Shown: piece by piece, positions 5,914 to 17,598 of the stretch
Position numbering within the stretch: the first letter of the stretch is position 1
Layout: each line of letters starts with the position of its first letter
Virus record (IMG/VR): IMGVR_UViG_2778261446_000009
Span: 1 to 21,912 of that record
DNA: 21,912 nucleotides
DNA from: a virus
Lineage: Duplodnaviria > Heunggongvirae > Uroviricota > Caudoviricetes
Reading direction: 5' to 3' (one strand)
Program-made: the position numbers and the translations under genes
Notes under the pieces: generated by a model
What the model was told of the DNA's origin: nothing
Database searches by the model: none
The model's input: only the letters and a program-made list of their open reading frames with translations

Positions 5914-7755
5914 CTACTGCCTGGTAGCTTCGTTAGTTAGGAGAGGGCGAACGGCGTTAGCAGCCTGATTTAACGCTCGCTCATATGCCGGAGTTCCAGG
6001 CTTGACGTTTGCAAGGCGGAGAAGCATGTTTCTTGCTGCTTTAGACTCATACAAACGCATCATTGCACCGAAACCAGCCTCAAGCCCCATTGATACGCCA
6101 AGAGTCGCAGTTGCGCCAATCGTCCTTATCCGGTTGGCTTGCGATTGCCCCGTCTGAGTTACTACATTTGCGGTGTCTGACCTTGCTGTTTGCTGTAGAA
6201 CTTCATGAAGAGAATCAAGCTCTTTCATGTGCTTTCCAGAAAAAATAGTGTTGTAAATTTCACCGCCTGACTGAGATTTCAGCTTATTAACTTCAGTGAT
6301 GAACTTGGCTGGAGAGTCACCGGCCTTTTCCGCTATTTTGCTGACGTAAGCTGCACGCATAGCATCTTTCCCTTTATCATCCAATGCGCTCCAGATTCGT
6401 TTCACGTCCGATGGTTTTCTGCTTAATACAACGGTATTTATAAGTTCAGGACTGGCTTCACTGCTTGCCTTGTTGAGCTTGTTAGCAATGTTTTTATTAA
6501 GCGCCTTATTATAAACGTTTGCATAATCGGAATTTGCTTTAAGGTATTTTGCTGCGTCTGATGCACCGAGGTTTTTAGCAACTGCGTTACGAAGGTCTTT
6601 TGACATTGCATTCTCTACCATATTGGTAGCTGCTTTTGCCTGGTTGGGGAAGACCATAGCATCTCCCTGAACATTAGATCTAAATGCTGTTCTGTGCTGA
6701 CGCAAGAGATCAAACGTAACATCCAAATCAGTTGCAGGGTTTGCTAATTCTTCACGTAGGTTACGCAAGGATGTAAGCAGGCTTTGATTGGCAGACGTCC
6801 CAAGCCGTTCCTGTCTTGCGATCGCTGTATTCAGAGCATTCATGGTATTTGTGGTATCAACTGCGGCATTACCCATTTTATTGGTGACGTCATTGATAAC
6901 AGCGCCAGCGGCATCCTTCCGCCCCCTTAACGTGGTGGTCAGAGATTTCACCACATCATCAGGGTTGTACTCACCAAAACGGTCAAAATAATTGCTTACC
7001 AGCTTACTACGCGTTGCATATTGCTCTGCTCGCTTTGAGCCTGTCCCGAGCAAAGCCCCCTCGGCATCCTGAGTAAGGCCGCGAGTGAAAGCATTTTTCG
7101 GCGGGATAACATCAGATGTCATTGGTGTCACGCCCATCGATTCTGATGTGGCAATTTTCTTCGCTACTTCTGGCGCAATATCACCTTTTATAGCCGTTAT
7201 TCCACGCCCTATTCCCTTTGCTGCTGCGGAAAGAACCCCCTGAGCGGCAAGGTTAACTCCGGCATTTTTGGCTGCATTTTGTGCGAAATCGCCTTTCTGA
7301 TTTGCGGCCTCTGCCAGTGAGCCAATAGCCATGCTTCCTGCCGTTCCAACTCCTGGAACTAAATACCCGCCAATTGTTTCTCCAGCTTGCGCATAAGGGT
7401 CTGTCGGTCTGTCTACTGGACGATAAACATCATCCAAAACCTTGGGTCCACCAAGCCCCTGACTGATTGCATTAATCAGACTTGCGCCACCCTGCAATAC
7501 GTCAAATGGTATGTTTACCAGACCACGACCAGCCTGTTCTGCAATTTGCCCTGCACTTTGACCACCAGTGAGCCAATCGCCAGCTTGTTGCATCAATGAT
7601 GGTTCTTCCCGTGTTGGTGCATTATTGGCCTGATTAACTGTTTGTTGCTGAACAGCCTGACCAGCAAAATACTCATCAATGGCGGTGCCAATATCTTCCG
7701 TGCTCGTACCATCAGGGAAGGTAAATGTCTTACCGTTTGCAGTTACTTTCATCAT
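5914..7755 (-). CDS. gp16: Ejection (DNA transfer) protein, P22 gp16 homolog
   Basis: 613 aa; starts [33 protein letters not shown]. Size and gene order match P22 gene 16. Start overlaps the stop of the upstream gene. Confidence 0.85.
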
Positions 7756-9167
7756 TCCACCGTAAATTGAATGCCTGATTTTGAGGTATATGATCCAACC
7801 TGATTCCGTGGTTCTCCTGAAGGTGTCGAATCTTGTGCTGGCGCTGCGTCAGTATTCAATGACATATACCGCTTAACGGCACTCCCCAATGATTCACCTT
7901 TTTTAACATCCAACCCCAATATCTGACCGCCATTACGCGATTGTCCAGGGTTGCCATTCGCGCTCATCCACTCGGCTTTAAACTCATTAAACTGCGCGTT
8001 TCGTCGCTCAAGGTTTGCCATTGCATCAAGCCATCTTGCGACCGTCTCAGGATTATCCATGTCAGTTGGCGCACCCTGCCGAACGATCTCAACGTCTTTA
8101 TCCGTTGCTGGGCCGGGAGGTAGGAATTTAAGAACCTGACTGTTAACAAGAGCATTTTGGCGAATGCGCAAATCACGCAATGTCGTATCGCTTCCGGTAA
8201 GTTTTGCGAACATGTTCTGTGCGTTACCGAACAAACCTGTCGTTGGTTTTTCTGCTCTGAACTGTTGAGCAAGCGCACTCATAGAATTGGCTGAGTTTGA
8301 TGATGCTGTGGCATTGTTTACAGCCGTCTCGATGCCTTTTTCCATGTTTACTGACAGCTTAGGTGCTTCGCTAATCAACTGCTGAGCCTTTTCCTGCGCT
8401 TGCTGCATCTTAAACCCGAACTCTTGCTGATCCAGAGCCAAGCGTTGTGCTGCGATATTGTGCCCAGTCATTGCTGACTGATAGGAAAGGTTTTGCCCTC
8501 TCGCCTGAAGTGCTTCACCAGCCTGATTGCTGCGGATTGTCTCTGCCAGCCTGCCTCGGTCAATCTCACGACCAGCCATCTTGTCCTGAACAGCAAACGC
8601 CTTTTCTGGTCCAAGCGCACCGAGAGACATAGTAGTCAGCATGTGTGATAGCTGCTCTGGATTCTGGATACCTGTCTGAATCATCCAGTCAGCATTAGCA
8701 CCAACGCGATTTAACCTGTCCTTGTTGTCAGTAATGAATTTACTGTAGGCTTCCGGTCCCTGAGAAAGAGCGACGTTAGCCCTCATGGCTAAATCGCCCA
8801 TATCGTTGCGTTGCTGCTCATTAAGACCGGAAAACGCCTGTTGTGCCTGTGCAACAAACGCTGGATTTTCCTGGGCAAACTTAAATAGTCCCGATGGATC
8901 ACCAGAAGCCCATGCATCAGCGTGAACCTTATTGAACGCACTAATCGCTTTCTGTTGCTGTTCCTGATTGTAAATATCAGCAACTCCAGCCAGACCACGT
9001 AACGCGGTCAGACCAACGTTATTTGTACCTGAGCGAGCCAGTTCATTGTTTTCGCGAATCAGACCAAGCGTTGCGTTAATGTCGCTTGCCTTTGGTGCAT
9101 TCTCATTTTGCGTACCAATGCCAGCCAGAAAACCACCAGAATTAATACCCTGTTGCCACGTAGCCAT
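7752..9167 (-). CDS. gp20: Ejection protein, P22 gp20 homolog
   Basis: 471 aa, the same length as P22 gp20. Position between the gp7 and gp16 homologs. Confidence 0.85.
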
Positions 9168-9177
9168 TGATTAACCC

Positions 9178-9870
9178 TTAAAACAGTGAACCAAGCAGAC
9201 CAAGACCAGCACCAATACCAGCCCCCCACGGAGTTGATAGCTCGAGAGCACTGGCTATGCCACCACCCAAAAGCGCACCGGATGCAGCACCACTAACACC
9301 CTGCTGCAATGCTGACGGTCGGTTGGCGTTTGCCGCCGCCAGTGCTGCGCTTTGCTGCGAAATCTGACTCATGTTGTTGGCATATGTTTGCCCGGCGTTT
9401 GCCTGTCCCTGAAGAGCGCCAAGACCGATATTTGCCAGGTTGTTGTAATTGTTCATTTGTCCAGATAGCCATTGCTGACCAAGCGTTGGTGCGATTGTTG
9501 CTAACTGATTACTGGTTGCAGTGGAACCCAATCCACCTGTTGCTTCCGCTGCCGCCAGACTCTGATAGCGAGCCTGACCAGCAAGATCTTTGTACTGCTG
9601 AGAGTTGTAATACTGGTTAAGTGCCTGACCTTGCTCTTCCAGAGACGATAAGTTCTCGAGGCTGCCGACATACTTATCAGCCAGAGGAGTAAACGGCTTC
9701 AGGTTGTTCATGATGGTGTTGAACTGCTGATTTTGCAGGTCTGCTGCATACTTCTGAGCTTCTGCGGCATACTTTGCGCTTTTATCAGAACTGCCACCTT
9801 TCCCGCCTTTTTCAGGGCAATAAGGTTCCTCGCCGCGCAGTTTTCTGCCCAGCTTAAATGCATATAACAT
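9178..9870 (-). CDS. gp7: Ejection protein, P22 gp7 homolog
   Basis: 230 aa (P22 gp7 is about 229 aa). Gly/Ala-rich C-terminus. Gene order matches. Confidence 0.8.
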   Translation of the reverse strand: MLYAFKLGRKLRGEEPYCPEKGGKGGSSDKSAKYAAEAQKYAADLQNQQFNTIMNNLKPFTPLADKYVGSLENLSSLEEQGQALNQYYNSQQYKDLAGQARYQSLAAAEATGGLGSTATSNQLATIAPTLGQQWLSGQMNNYNNLANIGLGALQGQANAGQTYANNMSQISQQSAALAAANANRPSALQQGVSGAASGALLGGGIASALELSTPWGAGIGAGLGLLGSLF

Positions 9871-9872
9871 GG

Positions 9873-10328
9873 CTATCTCCCGTGATTCAGGAAGTCGATT
9901 AGTTCTTCGCGTGTAGCACTGTAAAATGTCACGTCATCCACGCCTTTGAAGTATTTCTTGATGGTCCCTACACGCTTAAGGCCAATCATTGCGCAGTACA
10001 TCTGCCCGTGGCGGAATTTGCGTGCAGCGAACGATGTGACACACTGAACGGTGGTGTTAGTCAGAATGTATCGCCAGAACGCCAGCCCGATTTCCTTGCT
10101 GAATCCACGAACCTCTGGCAGGTACATGGCGTGGCAATCGAATGTCAGCGGCTGAATCTCCTGATAGTAAACAATGCCGCCGAACTGCCCGTGCACGTTC
10201 ACCTCAAAGTAACGGCATTCAGGTTTGTAGTCGTATCCATCACCGTTATTGCTCCCGGCGATAATGTCAGGGTGATTTCCTACTGCTTCGATCAGGTCGA
10301 TGTTTCGCGTTGGTTTGAATGTAATCAT
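9873..10328 (-). CDS. gp14: Head completion / tail accessory protein, P22 gp14-position homolog
   Basis: 151-aa ORF immediately downstream of the tail needle gene, with ATGA start/stop overlap. Assigned from gene order; the sequence was not recognised in detail. Confidence 0.7.
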   Translation of the reverse strand: MITFKPTRNIDLIEAVGNHPDIIAGSNNGDGYDYKPECRYFEVNVHGQFGGIVYYQEIQPLTFDCHAMYLPEVRGFSKEIGLAFWRYILTNTTVQCVTSFAARKFRHGQMYCAMIGLKRVGTIKKYFKGVDDVTFYSATREELIDFLNHGR

Positions 10329-11029
10329 CAGTCAATCAGCCCATGTAATCTAAGTGCTGTTTCAAGCGCCAGAATACGCTGCCGCGCCTGCTGCAAACCT
10401 GTAGCGAGAGCTGCGACTTCGGATTGTGTGTACGTAGTGCCGACCGTGTATGACTGGTTAGCGTTGAATGAGCCAAGAAGTGGCGTACCTGTGGCTGCAG
10501 TCCATCCGGTATTTCTTGCTCCAACAACCTGAATTCCATCAACTGAATATGATGTTTTTACATCCAGCGGTGACTCAAGAGACTGCAATTCGGTTACGGT
10601 TTTCGATACGTAATCACTCTTAATGTCAGATACATCGCTTTCTACGCCATCCAGTCTTTGGTCAACAGTGACCAGATGCGCCTGAATATCGATAACCTCA
10701 TCAAGCAAGTAATCAACATCGCTACGCAGTACGACTATCTTCCCTTCGGCGGTTGTTAACCTGACCTCAAGGAGATTTATCGCTTTTGTGTTTGCGGTGA
10801 TTCTTGCATCGTGATCTGCCAGTTCGACGTCCTGTTCATCGTTTTTCACCTGAGCATCGTAAGCGCCCTGACCAGCCTGATTTGCCTTCCCGGCAATTGC
10901 GCCGACATCAGCCCCCTGATTAATGACATACAGCAGGTAAGACTGGCTGAATATATTGCGTGGAAGGATTGATGTATCGAGCCGCGTCGCCTGCACAATA
11001 ACAGGGGTGTTGAGATTCGAATCAGCCAT
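10328..11029 (-). CDS. gp26: Tail needle protein, P22 gp26 homolog
   Basis: 233 aa. N-terminus [36 protein letters not shown]... and C-terminus ...[13 protein letters not shown] match P22 gp26. Confidence 0.9.
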
Positions 11030-12447
11030 TACTCAATCCTTATCTGGCAGCCAGACAGAGTGACAGGTGACTTCGTGATAACGCGCAATTTGAAGCCAAC
11101 ATTTTTCCTGATGCGCCCTACTCGCTTCCACAAAACGCGTTTGTCGTAAACGAACGGTTCATTCTGCTCAATCATCTGCTCACGACCGTAATTTATGCCG
11201 TCAGTGGTCGCAGAGAGAAAAAGGCGGTCAGCGTACTGCGCAACGCCAGTTGACGATTCAACCTCAAAGTCGAAAACTCTGGCGTTATCCGCTTTGAACA
11301 ACGGAGTAAACAGCAGGTGTTCCTGTTGAAGCCCGTACTGGCTGCTGATGTCGAATTGCAATTTCCCGGTCACGGACTCCAGCTTATCGCCGCACGTTAT
11401 CTGATTGCCTTCGTAAATGAAGTCGATAGCGCGGTACACATCGTCATACAAGCCTGTTTTCAGCACACACCATTGCGGACCATTGGCGCTTGAAGATGCG
11501 TCGTAAACAAGAACATGGCGCGGCAGGTGAATAATCAGCAACTCATGAGCATCAAACCGCAACGATTCCATCACGCCATCAGCCAGTTCATCAGCAGTGT
11601 AGGAGCGTAGTATTTTCTCAATGCTCGCGCTGGCGATTGGTGATACCTGACCGGAGCCGATGATATACACAGACGGCGCACCTGTTGCCGGATTGCTGAT
11701 GAACGCATACGAGTCAGCAAACGGCGTTTTGCAGTAGGTTCCGGCAATGCCTTTCTGCACCATCAGCGATGGCTGGGCGACATACAAAGCAGCACCAACG
11801 GTGGTTGCACCAGTCAGGGAGAAATATTCAATCGTCGATGAACCAAAACAGACGATGAAGTCTCGCCATGTGCCGATACCGATGATGCCGTCCGGCTGCG
11901 ATTCTGCGCGATATTGTGCGCTGTAGCGGTCAGGATGCGATTCGTCTTCAAGGTCAGTGATAAACCATGAATCAGTTCCGTCTTTTGACCACGCATAACG
12001 CCCACGCAAGCGCGTAATGTCACGAACCGAACCTAACTCATACTGAGTGAATCCGCTATCTGCAGGCCAGTTTGAGACGGTTTTAACCGTGCCATCATAG
12101 CGATACTCTACCAGTTGACCATTAACGCCTACAGCCTGAGATGTCCGACCATGCGCCATTGATACACGACCACTTCCGGCAACATCACCGACCTCGCTTT
12201 CGCCCTTATACAGCTTGCCACCGCAAACGCGATAAACAGCATTCTGCGCCATGTTGTACTCGACGCCGCGCGATACGCCGTTTACATCAGAGCGTTTGGC
12301 AATGCCCGGGAATGAGCGAAGATATCCGCTGCTGTTCAGGATTTCTTTTGGTGTAGCCAACATATTCACTGGCAGATAGTCGATATAGTCGGCGTTTCTA
12401 AAGTCTTTGCCGACACCTTTCATAAGCGGAAGTTGCTGAATCGGCAT
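11029..12447 (-). CDS. gp10: Tail accessory (portal-closure) protein, P22 gp10 homolog
   Basis: 472 aa, the same length as P22 gp10. Gene order matches. Confidence 0.85.
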
Positions 12448-12948
12448 TTATTCGCTCCCGTCATCGCAAGGTTCCTTCCGGTGGAAGTAATTCCAACCGT
12501 TCCACTTCGCCAACTGGTTACCACTACCAACAGGCATACGGTTTGGATAACCGGACTTACATTTAGCGGCTTTTGCTCTGTCCATTGCAGACAGTTTGAC
12601 GAGTCTCTCTTTCCCGTATCTGGCAGTGGTTATAAGTTTTGCAGACGCTTCCAGCGCATAATCCGGAGCAATGCGGCAGGCAAGGTTGAAAATGACGGCA
12701 TTGATAGCGTTATTTGATAAACCGTGTTCATCGCCAGGATCTGGAGCGACATCTGCATCAGCGAAAATGTAGCCAACGTTGATACCTGGTGACGCATCAC
12801 CGCCAAGCCATTCAGCCATCATCATTTCAAGGTCGTTGACGCCATCTTCCATAGACTGCGGTTCGACATCGGTTAACGTGGCATTTGATGCCACACCGAG
12901 CTTACGTAATGCCGCAAGAACTAAATCACCCTTCGTTGTCAGGTTCAT
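12448..12948 (-). CDS. gp4: Tail accessory protein, P22 gp4 homolog (166 aa); internal start of tool ORF 12448..13029
   Basis: From the ATG at 12946-12948: [33 protein letters not shown]... matches the P22 gp4 N-terminus and its 166-aa length. The tool's 27-codon QSQSQ extension derives from the upstream hexamer repeat. Confidence 0.85.
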
Positions 12949-13168
12949 CTGCTGCCGCCTTAGGTTTTCGACCAGGATTTTTACGCTGTTTTTCTTCTGG
13001 CTCTGGCTCTGGCTCTGGCTCTGCAACATCCTTCAAAAGGTCATCAGGATGTGAAAACCAACCAGCATCCAGATATTCCTGAAGCTCTTCGGCTTTCACG
13101 ATTTCAAAGTCGTAGCCAACGCCTTTCCACTTCTTCATGTCGCCATGACGAAAGATCATGTGTGTCAT
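12926..13168 (-). CDS. Small acidic hypothetical protein (about 80 aa) with an (EP)n repeat, between coat and gp4
   Basis: ATG at 13166-13168 preceded by GGAGA, just downstream of the coat terminator. The tool reports it as 12926..13216 from a GTG. Encodes ...[24 protein letters not shown]... Overlaps the gp4 start by 23 nt in a different frame. Confidence 0.45.
12996..13019. repeat. Hexanucleotide tandem repeat (TCTGGC)x4, plus a partial copy
   Basis: Four perfect tandem copies read directly from the sequence. Encodes the EPEPEPEP run in the small ORF frame. Confidence 0.8.
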
Positions 13169-13182
13169 GCTTGTCTCCAGAT

Positions 13183-13204
13183 AAAAAAGGGAGCCGAAGC
13201 TCCC
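13183..13204 (-). terminator. Rho-independent terminator immediately after the coat gene (minus strand)
   Basis: On the minus strand, GGGAGC-TTCG-GCTCCC followed by TTTTTTAT, starting 9 nt after the coat stop codon. Confidence 0.65.
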
Positions 13205-13212
13205 TCTGGTTA

Positions 13213-14508
13213 TCACGCAGTCTGGTTAGGCAGACCAACACCAATTGCCTCTGGTCGTACAGCACATGCTGAATACCACACAGCAATACGGCACTTACCA
13301 GACAGAGTGTTGATATCACCCTGCGTTGCGAAGATGCCGTTAACACCAATACCAGGAATGCTGAAGGAAGACGTTTTCATGCCAGCAAACAGTTCATGGG
13401 TTACCGGGATCGGCTGAGACAGCAGACGGATTGAGTCATCAGCCCAGAACACGTTAGCGGTTGTTGTTGCCACGTTCAGAACGTTTACCGGAGTGGTATC
13501 AGCAAGAGAGGTGTTTACGTTAGCGTAAGCCTTCTCTTCTTTTGTCAGTGACGCGTCATCCAGTGCAATCGGCTTCGGCGTGATTTCGATGTGAGTACTA
13601 TCGATCACGCGGGTGATTGAGAAAGTAGCATCATCAGTCAGCACGTTCTTCGCCATCTGAGACAGGAATTTCACACCAGTGAAGCTGATTTTGTCGCCGC
13701 GCTTAAATCCGGTGGTGGAGGATACGGTCACCGTTGCAACACGGTTGTCGACGTTCTCTTTGTTACCATCGGTATCAAGGGTGTATGCCTGCGGCTTAAA
13801 CTTCTGCGCACCAGAAACAGTTACACCAGTAGCGGTTGACTTGGTAACTGCCGGAAGTTTAGGTGAGCGAAGAATTTCATCAAAGCCAGCAATCTGACGC
13901 TGAATAGTACCGTTGCGATACGCTTCTTCAGGAACGCGACCGAAGATGTCACCATCTACCAGGTTGCGGCCTGCTTTGCGGTAATCGTCAGGGTTCAGGA
14001 AGTAACTGATGCCCATATCGCGGTTTAGCTCACGGGAGAACATCAGGCGCTCTGCATCAGACACAAAATCCTAGCCAGACAGGCCAGTAGATGGACCAAT
14101 TGCGCGGGTATCGTGAACAACAAGCGAGCCCATTTCAGTTGCCTGTTTGGCAATTGCTGACTCAATGTTATTCGCCAGTTTTTTGGCGGATGCCTGGATG
14201 CGACGACGGTAAGAACGCTCATCACGCAGGTCATCTGCACGAAGCTCGAAAAAATCGTTATCCGGATCGCCCATGTTGCATTTCACGGAGAGTTCCAGAA
14301 TCCCGGTTGCGTTGCCAGTTAAATCCCAGCCAGTCTGGGTTGGCGCTTCCTGCTCAACAGGCATCCACACGGTGTTGCTTGAACGCTGCATGGATTCTGC
14401 CGGAGGGGTGTATTTTGTCACTTTGGACGCCATTGGCGTCAGGTTCTGGACGGTTTCGATGATTTCATCCAGAGCATACGTGACCAGTTGACCTTCATTT
14501 AATGCCAT
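13213..14508 (-). pseudogene. gp5: Major capsid (coat) protein gene, P22 gp5 homolog, interrupted by an in-frame TAG (amber) at codon 146
   Basis: Tool ORFs 14071..14508 and 13213..14064 are in the same frame. The joined length of 431 codons matches P22 coat (430 aa). The N-terminus MALNEGQ... and the region after the stop ([20 protein letters not shown]) align with P22 coat ([21 protein letters not shown]), placing the TAG at the conserved Trp (TGG to TAG). RBS AAGGAA precedes the ATG at 14506-14508. Confidence 0.85.
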
Positions 14509-15419
14509 TATCGAATTCCTTTATTCAGTTGCGCCTTGAGCTTGCGGTATGTCTCTACATCCCCTTTGTTTGCTGCCGCTTCCATCTGCTTTTCAATCGC
14601 AGAGATATTTGCAGCAACAGCGTGTCCCTGAATGGGTTCATCAGGTAACGGGGCTTCTGAAACAGGCTTGGCTCGAGGCTTGAGAGTTAAACGTTCTGAC
14701 AGTCGAGTGAGTTCAATCAGCGCGGATTGCCCGTCCATCGCCAGCAACTGGCGTGTTTTCTCAGGATTAGCACCAAGGTGATACATGAGTGCAGCGGATT
14801 TCTCCGGGAAGAGGCGCATGATGTCGGCGCCGACTGCTGGCGGCACCAGTTGCATGAATGCGTCCTCTTTCTCCTGATAGTCAGGGATATTGAGCTTTTC
14901 CGCTGCGTCGTAGTGCTTACGGGCTGCCTCGGCGTATTGCGCTGATTGCTGGGTGAACTCCTGAGTTTTGCGACCCTGCTCGGCGACAGCCTGGCTTCGT
15001 GCGTCCATAGCCTTGATCTGCCATTCACTGTTTGCCTGCTGGAAGGCAGCCAGTGCGCGGCTCTGGTCATAGTCGTACTTAGCCAGTGCGTCTTCGGAAA
15101 GATAATCGTTAGGGTCTGGTTGTTTTGGTAACTCAGGGTTCACCCGCAGGTGCTCCGGCAACTCTCCACGCTTAACCGCTTCCATCTGCTGCTCAAGCTC
15201 ACGCTGGCGTTTGCGTTCGATGCGGCGACGGGCAAATTCAGCATTAGTTGCCGGGTCTTGTTTTGGTTTCTCATCGTCTTTCAGGACAATCTCGAAGCCT
15301 TCTTCCTGACCTGTGTTATCGTTGGCATTATCGACAACTAAGCCATCAGCAGATGCCGCTGCATGATTGCCGGGCAGGGTTAATTCTTCAGAAGCCTGAA
15401 TGTCGGTGGTTTGGTCCAT
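14508..15419 (-). CDS. gp8: Scaffolding protein, P22 gp8 homolog
   Basis: 303 aa, the same length as P22 gp8. Acidic and Gln-rich. Stop overlaps the coat start (TAATG). Confidence 0.9.
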
Positions 15420-15432
15420 GATTAACTCTCTC

Positions 15433-17598
15433 TTATTGAGGTGTCTCGGCTACTCCGCCGGAGGGGATTTGAACTTGACGCATAAGATTCGCGAAATCCA
15501 TGCGTTGTGAATGAGTCTGGTCTGCATCTTTAAGAAGCAGCTCAGCGTTAGCACGAGCATCTTTGCTGCGCTGTTGCTGGAATTGACCTACGAGCTTGAG
15601 GTACTCACGCAGTTCTGCCTGCTTGTCGAGGTCCATATTGTTGAAGATTTCTGCAATCTTCGCGGCGTTGAGTTGGTTTTGGGCTTCAACCTTGGCAGCT
15701 TCAACCTGAATCTGCGCCTGTTGGTTCTCTGCCTTGAGCAATTCAGCCTGACCTTGCAGAAGGATACCCTGCGCCTGAATTTGCTCTGCTGATGGCTGCT
15801 GCGGCTGCTGTTGCGCCTGTTGTACCATCTCCATCTCTTCAGGTGTTTCTGCTTTCTTCAGCCCCATCATCACCAGTTGCTTGTTCGCGTACTCTCGCAT
15901 CATCTCGACGCCTTTACCGTCAAGCAGCGTGAAGTATTGCAGCATCAGCATCTGGAACTCTGGAGTACCTTGCGGAACCTTGGTTAGCAACTCCTGAATC
16001 TCTGCGCGATTCTGTTCCTTCATGCTCTGGAAGGATGGCCCAACGTCCGTATAGCACTCATAGCGACCGCGAATGTCGTTGAGTGTGACCACATTGCCGG
16101 ACTGATAATCGACAACTTGCGCATAGAGTTGAACGTCTTTCTCGCTTCCATCTTCAAGTGTCAGCGTCACATGACGAGGAACGTCATAAATATCGTTGAC
16201 CATTGAGGCATAAATCTCGCCATCACGTCGCATTGCGGTAGCCAGGTTATCCTGAAACACGTATGTCTCAAGGTCTGCCCGCATGTTCAGTTGATTGACG
16301 GTATCGAAAGCGACCTGACCATTTGCCGCCTGCGCATCCACGCCAAGACTAGCCACCTCTTTCACTGCGTTGGTGGCAGCCTCAAGCATGTAAGCGTTGG
16401 CTTGCGGCACTTCAGGGTTTTCCATGTAGGAGATTGGACCAATCGGAAGGTCGTTACCGTTTTCATCGGTCTTGTTCTGCAGATAGTACGGATAGTCATC
16501 ATTTCCACCGTACATGTATTCGTAGCCTTCGATTTGCTCAGGGAAGAAGGTCGGTTTCTTCTTCGGTGAACGAGCAACAATATCGGCGTTGAACGACATG
16601 ATCATGTTACGAAGGCGTTGGCCGTCTTTCGTCAGCCTTACCACGCCCTCGTAGCACTCCTTGTCACCAGCGAATGACCATTCGCCGTACACAGGAACGA
16701 TTGGGATATGCTCTCCGGCTATCTTCTCGCGGTCTTTCAGTATCTGCGTGCAGGTGATGATCGACTTATACACACGCCGACGCTTGACCTTACGCTCTGC
16801 TACCTTAATGAATCCACGATTAGCCAGGTCGTCGATGACGTCTTTGATATCCTGCTGGTAATAGCTGACCGGCTCACCTGTCAGCGGGTCGCGGTAGATG
16901 AAGACTTTCTCTTTCTTCTCTTCGACCTCGTAATACTCAGCGACGTAGACGACATCATTCGATACCCACGGAAACAGCCATGTATCGTTCGGATTCTGGA
17001 AAGATGGCAAGGTGTCAGGATCAATACCGTAATCCTCTGCGAACTCTTTCCAGCCATTGCGTGACAAAGCGTTAATCACCGTGCAGTGCTTAGCATCGCT
17101 CTTATCCATCTGCTTGCTGTTGGCGTCCCATATGACGTGTGAGCAGGCTTCATGGATTGGCAGGCGTCGGATTACCTGATTGTTGCTTGTTGGGTCGTTG
17201 TCTTCGTACTGGGTGACCAGACGCCATGCACCAACGCCGGACTCTATCTGCTCACGAACGCCAACGTTAACGGCAATCTTTGCCGTGTTATGGCGCATAT
17301 CAGTACGATACATTCCCATCAACACATCGGCAGCATCAGGATTAGCGCCGTCTTTGGGTCGGAAGAGAACGTCGATAGGGTTCCGGCGCATCTCTGCGAC
17401 CAGTTTCCTGACCACCGGGCGAACAACATCGAATTGTCCGCGATATTGCAGGGTGGTGTAGTTTGATAGCCAGTCATCCCATTGCGACACTCGGCTAAAA
17501 TACAGGTCATTTGTCGCCTCGGTTCTGGCTTCATCGCTCGCCATCCAGTCCGCGTCAAACTTACACAGAATGGAATTGAGTCTGTTTTCGTCGGCCAT
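15433..17598 (-). CDS. gp1: Portal protein, P22 gp1 homolog
   Basis: 721 aa. [45 protein letters not shown]... matches the P22 portal along its length, including the Gln-rich C-terminal barrel region. Confidence 0.95.

Follow-up and report, generated by a model that had tools for sequence, protein, structure and literature searches.

An apparently recent amber mutation probably inactivates the coat gene of a P22-like Escherichia coli prophage that otherwise looks intact

The major capsid gene of a P22-like prophage is found here in two pieces. In the window (the whole stretch of DNA that was analysed, 21,912 nucleotides, IMG/VR record IMGVR_UViG_2778261446_000009), the minus strand of 13213-14508 encodes 145 residues and a stop, after which the same frame stays open for 286 residues until the normal stop. 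The question raised by this locus is whether the stop is real; if real, whether it is natural, whether it is tolerated and whether it is young or one lesion among many in an old remnant.

The internal stop is an amber codon (TAG, codon 146, 14073..14071 on the minus strand, context GGC TAG GAT). The list of open reading frames gives two same-frame minus-strand ORFs (14071..14508, 145 aa; 13213..14064, 283 aa) and the read-through product has 431 residues. When Trp is restored at the stop, this product matches the P22 coat structures (2xyy, 5uu5, 8i1v and others) over residues 1-431 with E = 1.9e-215 (HMMER). In the HMMER alignment, the stop is placed exactly on the Trp of P22 '...TA-DAWNFVADAEEIMF', i.e. 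P22 W145. The change at codon 146 is a single G-to-A transition on the coding strand (C-to-T at plus-strand 14072). The sequence-only reading had described a coat gene split by a single TAG at codon 146 with a 431-residue read-through, a stop facing the Trp of a P22 motif and a single TGG-to-TAG transition: the translation gives the same coordinates and numbers, the alignment the same Trp, and all fetched relatives read GGC TGG GAT. Chance occurrence is not at issue, because the TAG is a single deterministic difference from every relative. The features are listed in Table 1.

Table 1. Coat gene, its interruption and the neighbouring late genes in the window.
Feature	Position in the window	Strand	Remarks
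Major capsid (coat, gp5-type) gene of a P22-like (Lederbergvirus) prophage	13213..14508	-	432 codons including the terminal stop; broken at codon 146
In-frame amber codon TAG, codon 146	14071..14073	-	Mutated base 14072: T on the plus strand, A on the coding strand
N-terminal coat fragment ORF, 145 aa	14071..14508	-	Separate gene in the NCBI and Logan assemblies
C-terminal coat remainder, same frame	13213..14064	-	Called from GTG 14064 (283 aa) or ATG 14043 (276 aa)
Scaffolding protein gene, 303 aa, intact	14508..15419	-	PF09306; 99.3% full-length identity to APC_JM3.2
Downstream late genes gp4, gp10, gp26 needle, gp14, gp7, gp20, gp16, full length	5914..13029	-	
Upstream late genes portal (721 aa), large terminase (499 aa), small terminase (162 aa), full length	15433..19570	-	

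Both coat fragments are matched by PF11651 (P22_CoatProtein). The I-domain structure 2m5s matches coat residues 224-346; the 145-residue product thus ends well before the I-domain and has none of the sequence that follows. In a non-suppressing host, the 145-aa ORF is expected to be the sole part of the coat that is translated efficiently. The residues of the C-terminal remainder are identical to those of intact coat alleles, and neither the gene calls nor the comparison with these alleles gives evidence that the remainder is a genuine separate gene. At the DNA level, the coat gene is 98-99% identical to intact coat genes of E. coli prophages and phages. Full-length homology to the P22 coat family, including the I-domain, and the place in the late operon with scaffold and gp4 are thus found together with a frame that is interrupted. 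The interrupted gene is a pseudogene allele of a member of the P22 coat protein family.

The sequence-only reading had proposed that coat genes of close relatives be aligned in search of TGG at codon 146. TGG is found in all relatives covered. Eleven out of 11 fetched coat genes, from six E. coli chromosomes and five isolated phages (APC_JM3.2, IME10, HZ41, Bas106, Louie), have GGC TGG GAT. A scan with an R-degenerate 41-mer gives G (TGG) in 119/119 IMG/VR loci, and plus-strand 14072 is C (TGG) in 130/130 relatives aligned to the window. In 5,426 complete E. coli genomes, an 81-mer centred on codon 146 has 230 matching places, the best of them at 80/81 and hence none identical. The exact TAG 41-mer has no match in GTDB representative genomes and none in JGI metagenome contigs. 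In the protein, this Trp does not vary among 129 coat homologues from Escherichia, Salmonella, Citrobacter, Klebsiella, Serratia and Hafnia (all with at least 84% identity) and is kept in the 25%-identical coat of another P22-like branch (DETEC-P61 prophage). The coat protein is, stop excepted, WP_021568314.1 residue for residue. At the level of sequence, these comparisons show a TAG allele that is private to the source strain lineage.

A widespread TAG allele was considered and rejected. An exact look-up of the 145-aa product gave seven short metagenome or SRA contigs, none of which has the TAG. Six of these seven contigs end at codon 145/146 with '', 'T' or 'TG'. The seventh (L006), a MEGAHIT metagenome contig with leftover Illumina adapter, has 'TG' followed by the adapter (AGATCGGAAGAG), which creates a false TGA. 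Two other contigs (L010, L011) merely start at the ATG of the 276-aa piece. The seven short contigs (among the set L002-L008, L010, L011) are a selection artefact of the exact-product look-up, not TAG alleles. Counts of contigs carrying an exact product should be read with this caveat: such contigs may just end or begin at the boundary of a fragment.

As the difference is one base in a draft assembly, and as the TAG occurs in no other sequence of the E. coli genome, GTDB, IMG/VR and JGI collections searched, the true codon could be TGG and the coat gene intact. An exact look-up places the window in contig NOCT01000050.1 (31,587 bp) of the draft NCBI assembly GCA_002517975.1; window 4071..21912 equals locus L001 in reverse complement, and the contig stops, inside the lysis genes, at window position 21912. 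In the Logan assembly of run SRR3974396, the coat gene of contig SRR3974396_61 (24,371 bp; reported in 2 samples) is 100% identical to that of the window, TAG included, and the gene calls are again 145 aa and 283 aa. This assembly is independent of the NCBI one, but possibly made from the same reads; a systematic read error could then be shared by both. A second NCBI contig (31,633 bp) has the same two coat fragments (145-aa and 276-aa products). The TAG lies outside any homopolymer or repeat, and consensus substitution errors are very rare in Illumina assemblies. A sequencing or assembly error, one of the alternatives raised from the sequence alone, is thus very unlikely: the Logan assembly repeats the TAG and the second NCBI contig repeats the fragments.

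The genomic context bears on the origin of the mutation. Past the tailspike gene, the contig carries an S24-peptidase remnant, then dacD, sbmC, yeeA, yeeX and a CP4-44-like island. Two E. coli chromosomes, those of DETEC-P61 (rectal swab isolate) and S163-2 (pangolin), match this host flank at 99.8% identity; since dacD-sbmC-yeeA-yeeX is so close to E. coli chromosomes, the element is a chromosomal prophage of a wild-type E. coli lineage. The nearest phage records are the E. coli Lederbergvirus APC_JM3.2, IME10 and HZ41 (94-97% identity), whereas P22-group Salmonella phages are about 80% identical to the window DNA. At the prophage/host junction beside dacD, a peptidase-S24 fragment (window 1..369, minus strand) corresponds to a frameshifted S24 pseudogene in the DETEC-P61 annotation; it looks like a remnant common to strains with different prophages at the dacD site.

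TGG-to-TAG is a transition favoured by common mutagens, which would suit a mutant deliberately isolated in the laboratory, like P22 5-amN114, and kept in a suppressor host. Gene 5 amber mutations are indeed classic laboratory tools of P22, grown on supE hosts (bioRxiv 10.1101/626804). This origin, also raised by the sequence-only reading, has an almost negligible probability. The element is not P22: its DNA is only about 80% identical to that of the P22 group and its coat protein differs at many sites. It is integrated beside dacD with a flank 99.8% identical to clinical and animal isolates, and its sequence bears natural-population polymorphism. A literature search for NOCT00000000, GCA_002517975 and SRR3974396 gave no match, the accession and the run being mentioned in no paper found. 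The closest records being E. coli prophages and phages and the flank that of wild E. coli, the background is not that of laboratory P22.

None of the other late genes looks damaged. The order is TerS-TerL-portal-scaffold-coat-orf-gp4-gp10-gp26-gp14-gp7-gp20-gp16, followed by an immI-like region and the tailspike gene; the stop of the scaffold gene overlaps the start codon of the coat gene. In comparison with the isolated phage APC_JM3.2, TerS and TerL are 100% and portal 99.7% identical; gp4, gp10, gp26 and gp14 are 97-99% identical to their counterparts. The ejection proteins are mosaic, yet full length. The other late-region proteins (about 20 genes) align end to end with those of APC_JM3.2 or of intact prophages, as the sequence-only reading had supposed for the morphogenesis genes.

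Several other features of the region were recorded. The small ORF downstream of the coat gene (12926..13168, minus strand) carries a perfect TCTGGC x 4.7 tandem repeat at 12996..13023; it has 80 aa here, 88 and 104 aa in relatives, and a repeat_region is annotated there in APC_JM3.2. It appears to encode a length-variable repeat protein. A 161-aa T5orf172/MUG113 (GIY-YIG-like) gene (20259..20744, minus strand) lies between the Rz lysis gene and a DUF2560 gene; its slot holds a Rha regulator in APC_JM3.2 and nothing in the AHB29 prophage, and it looks like a mobile or moron insertion. The genes of the immI-like region (2853..5894, between gp16 and the tailspike gene) are 99-100% identical to those of the AHB29 prophage. 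They encode a 213-aa HTH and peptidase-S24 (CI/LexA-type) repressor (4863..5504, plus strand), a Bro-N/P22AR_C antirepressor-like protein (3890..4621, minus strand), an Arc-family protein and the products of several more ORFs. The tailspike (553..2448, minus strand) combines a P22 head-binding domain (residues 1-113) with a GDSL/SGNH esterase-type domain, not a beta-helix glycanase. DETEC-P61 has a tailspike gene of the same length (631 aa) at the same place beside dacD, in a prophage whose coat is 25% identical. This agreement in length and position, with coats so different, suggests that tailspike and head modules may be exchanged as a mosaic.

A real and natural stop could still be a tolerated one, the UAG being read by a suppressor tRNA of the host or prophage, or by programmed read-through or recoding, so that full-length coat is made. 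TAG reassignment in late genes is known in some phages. Furthermore, related prophages have tRNA genes between Q and holin, a slot that lies past the end of the contig here. The contig ends in the lysozyme gene (window 21553..21912); the tRNA-Asn and tRNA-Thr genes of related prophages (L017 23306..23461; L026 359..514) would be located just past the window end, and this shared, repeated Q-holin tRNA segment is probably the cause of the assembly break. ARAGORN found no tRNA gene in the window. Recoded phages have many in-frame TAGs over their late genes; here, the late operon contains a single one from end to end, all its other genes being ordinary open frames. Programmed read-through would leave a stop conserved in relatives; none of the 130 has a stop at codon 146. 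The T=7 capsid of P22 requires roughly 415 coat subunits, for which basal read-through is too little. A functional, tolerated stop is highly improbable on this evidence, which for tRNA genes covers the window. It can hardly be expected either that the amber is tolerated natively through a strain- or prophage-coded suppressor, or that the 145-residue fragment is kept to poison superinfecting P22-like phages. If the former were true, capsid production would be conditional on suppression; if the latter were true, the fragment would block capsid assembly of P22-like phages that trans-activate the late operon.

If the stop is a lesion, its age can be assessed from the accompanying changes. Between this coat gene and that of strain 165, there are 18 synonymous differences, W146* being the sole non-synonymous one. 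A base was considered private when it occurs in none of the other sequences, among 49 distinct relatives. Over coat, scaffold and portal, the private changes of the window that are non-synonymous number 3 (W146*, scaffold V163A, portal P583A), beside 6 that are synonymous; the values pooled over the relatives are 184 synonymous and 89 non-synonymous. Prolonged relaxed selection was rejected, as the ratio of 6:3 is no different from 184:89. Because the late operon is otherwise undecayed and the private-mutation load is typical of relatives, the knockout looks recent; W146* is apparently a young change, as judged from these sequences.

An old defective remnant, in which the TAG would be one of many lesions, is unlikely. 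It could be suggested by the S24-peptidase pseudogene remnant at the prophage/host junction and by the early region of the prophage, which is on other contigs and hence outside view. Against this long-standing decay, all of the about 20 late-region genes keep their full length, at 97-100% identity to an isolated phage, the private ratio matches that of the relatives, and no extra non-synonymous change is found in the coat gene downstream of the stop. Two other cases give a sense of the background decay of prophages in this group. Among 90 full-length IMG/VR coat genes, a single one (L104) is broken, having lost 1 bp; coat-gene lesions would be at roughly the 1% level, i.e. rare but known. In the E. 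coli CT02 prophage (L014, 9002..11076), a deletion has fused a truncated DnaB-like gene to a truncated portal gene and the terminase genes are lost.

Taken together, these results make it very probable that the capsid gene of this P22-like prophage was broken recently by a spontaneous nonsense mutation; the prophage sits beside dacD in the chromosome of a natural E. coli isolate and otherwise looks intact. Integration at dacD, a private TAG, intact neighbours and a normal private load all agree with a recent inactivating mutation, the first of the alternatives in the sequence-only reading. Its description of a cryptic prophage unable to make capsids stands for the recent inactivation; 'cryptic' is an overstatement, since the damage seen is confined to the capsid gene, and the early region is on another contig.

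The mutation is a G:C-to-A:T change at the invariant Trp-146 codon, and G:C to A:T is the commonest class of spontaneous mutation. A Dcm 5-methylcytosine hotspot was considered and rejected: classic lacI amber hotspots are Dcm CCWGG sites, and direct reading of the wild-type sequence (ATCCCAGCC / GGCTGGGAT, two strands) gives no CCWGG. Without an amber suppressor, RF1 would end coat translation after residue 145. According to the published P22 architecture, the resulting fragment would be reduced to N-arm, E-loop and spine-helix region, and would be missing the C-terminal strands of the P-domain as well as most of the A-domain. Such a fragment is predicted to be unable to form an HK97-fold subunit, and no procapsids would be made. 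The coat gene is single-copy and essential in P22-type phages. On induction, the prophage might still excise, replicate and lyse the cell, presumably with essentially no infectious particles. Particles could be rescued by reversion of the base, by a related phage that supplies coat or recombines, or by UAG suppression in the host. The lesion is one base from reversion, and repair would be possible by recombination with many related E. coli prophages.

For annotation, the two coat ORFs should be joined into one pseudogene that carries an internal stop. Prophage finders would see a complete gene set, yet this prophage should be counted among those that probably cannot make virions. This is ordinary pseudogenisation of a prophage capsid gene, probably recent, and would not surprise a specialist. 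As a natural case, the locus neatly illustrates how prophage domestication or decay begins: with a single revertible nonsense mutation and no secondary decay. It could be used in population studies of prophage death and as a natural amber allele for the assembly genetics of E. coli P22-like phages.

Three known systems can be compared with this locus. The first is the set of P22 gene 5 ambers (e.g. 5-amN114), in which a single amber codon is likewise found in the gp5-type coat gene of a P22-like phage. These mutants need a supE host or a plasmid-borne gene 5 (bioRxiv 10.1101/626804). By analogy, neither coat nor procapsids would be expected here in su- hosts, and a suppressor or plasmid gene 5 would be expected to rescue them. 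Unlike these mutants, the present allele belongs to a natural E. coli prophage, the late region of which shares only about 80% DNA identity with P22-group Salmonella phages, and arose without laboratory selection; its amber is at the equivalent of P22 W145, and no map position of P22 5-amN114 was found in the literature search. The second comprises the intact coats of E. coli Lederbergvirus (WP_021568314.1, WP_001196946.1; APC_JM3.2, IME10). The gene order (scaffold, coat, small ORF, gp4) is the same, whereas codon 146 is TGG in these and TAG here. The third comprises defective E. coli prophages inactivated by point mutations. What is shared with these is an integrated prophage, lambdoid or P22-like, that is disabled in a gene essential to the virion: the element is in the chromosome and W146* is absent from its relatives (0/130, including the five isolated phages). 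In contrast with ordinary defective prophages, the lesion could be undone by changing one base, and the remaining late genes are undamaged. Judged from its late region, the source prophage would be at the earliest stage of decay, not an eroded remnant.
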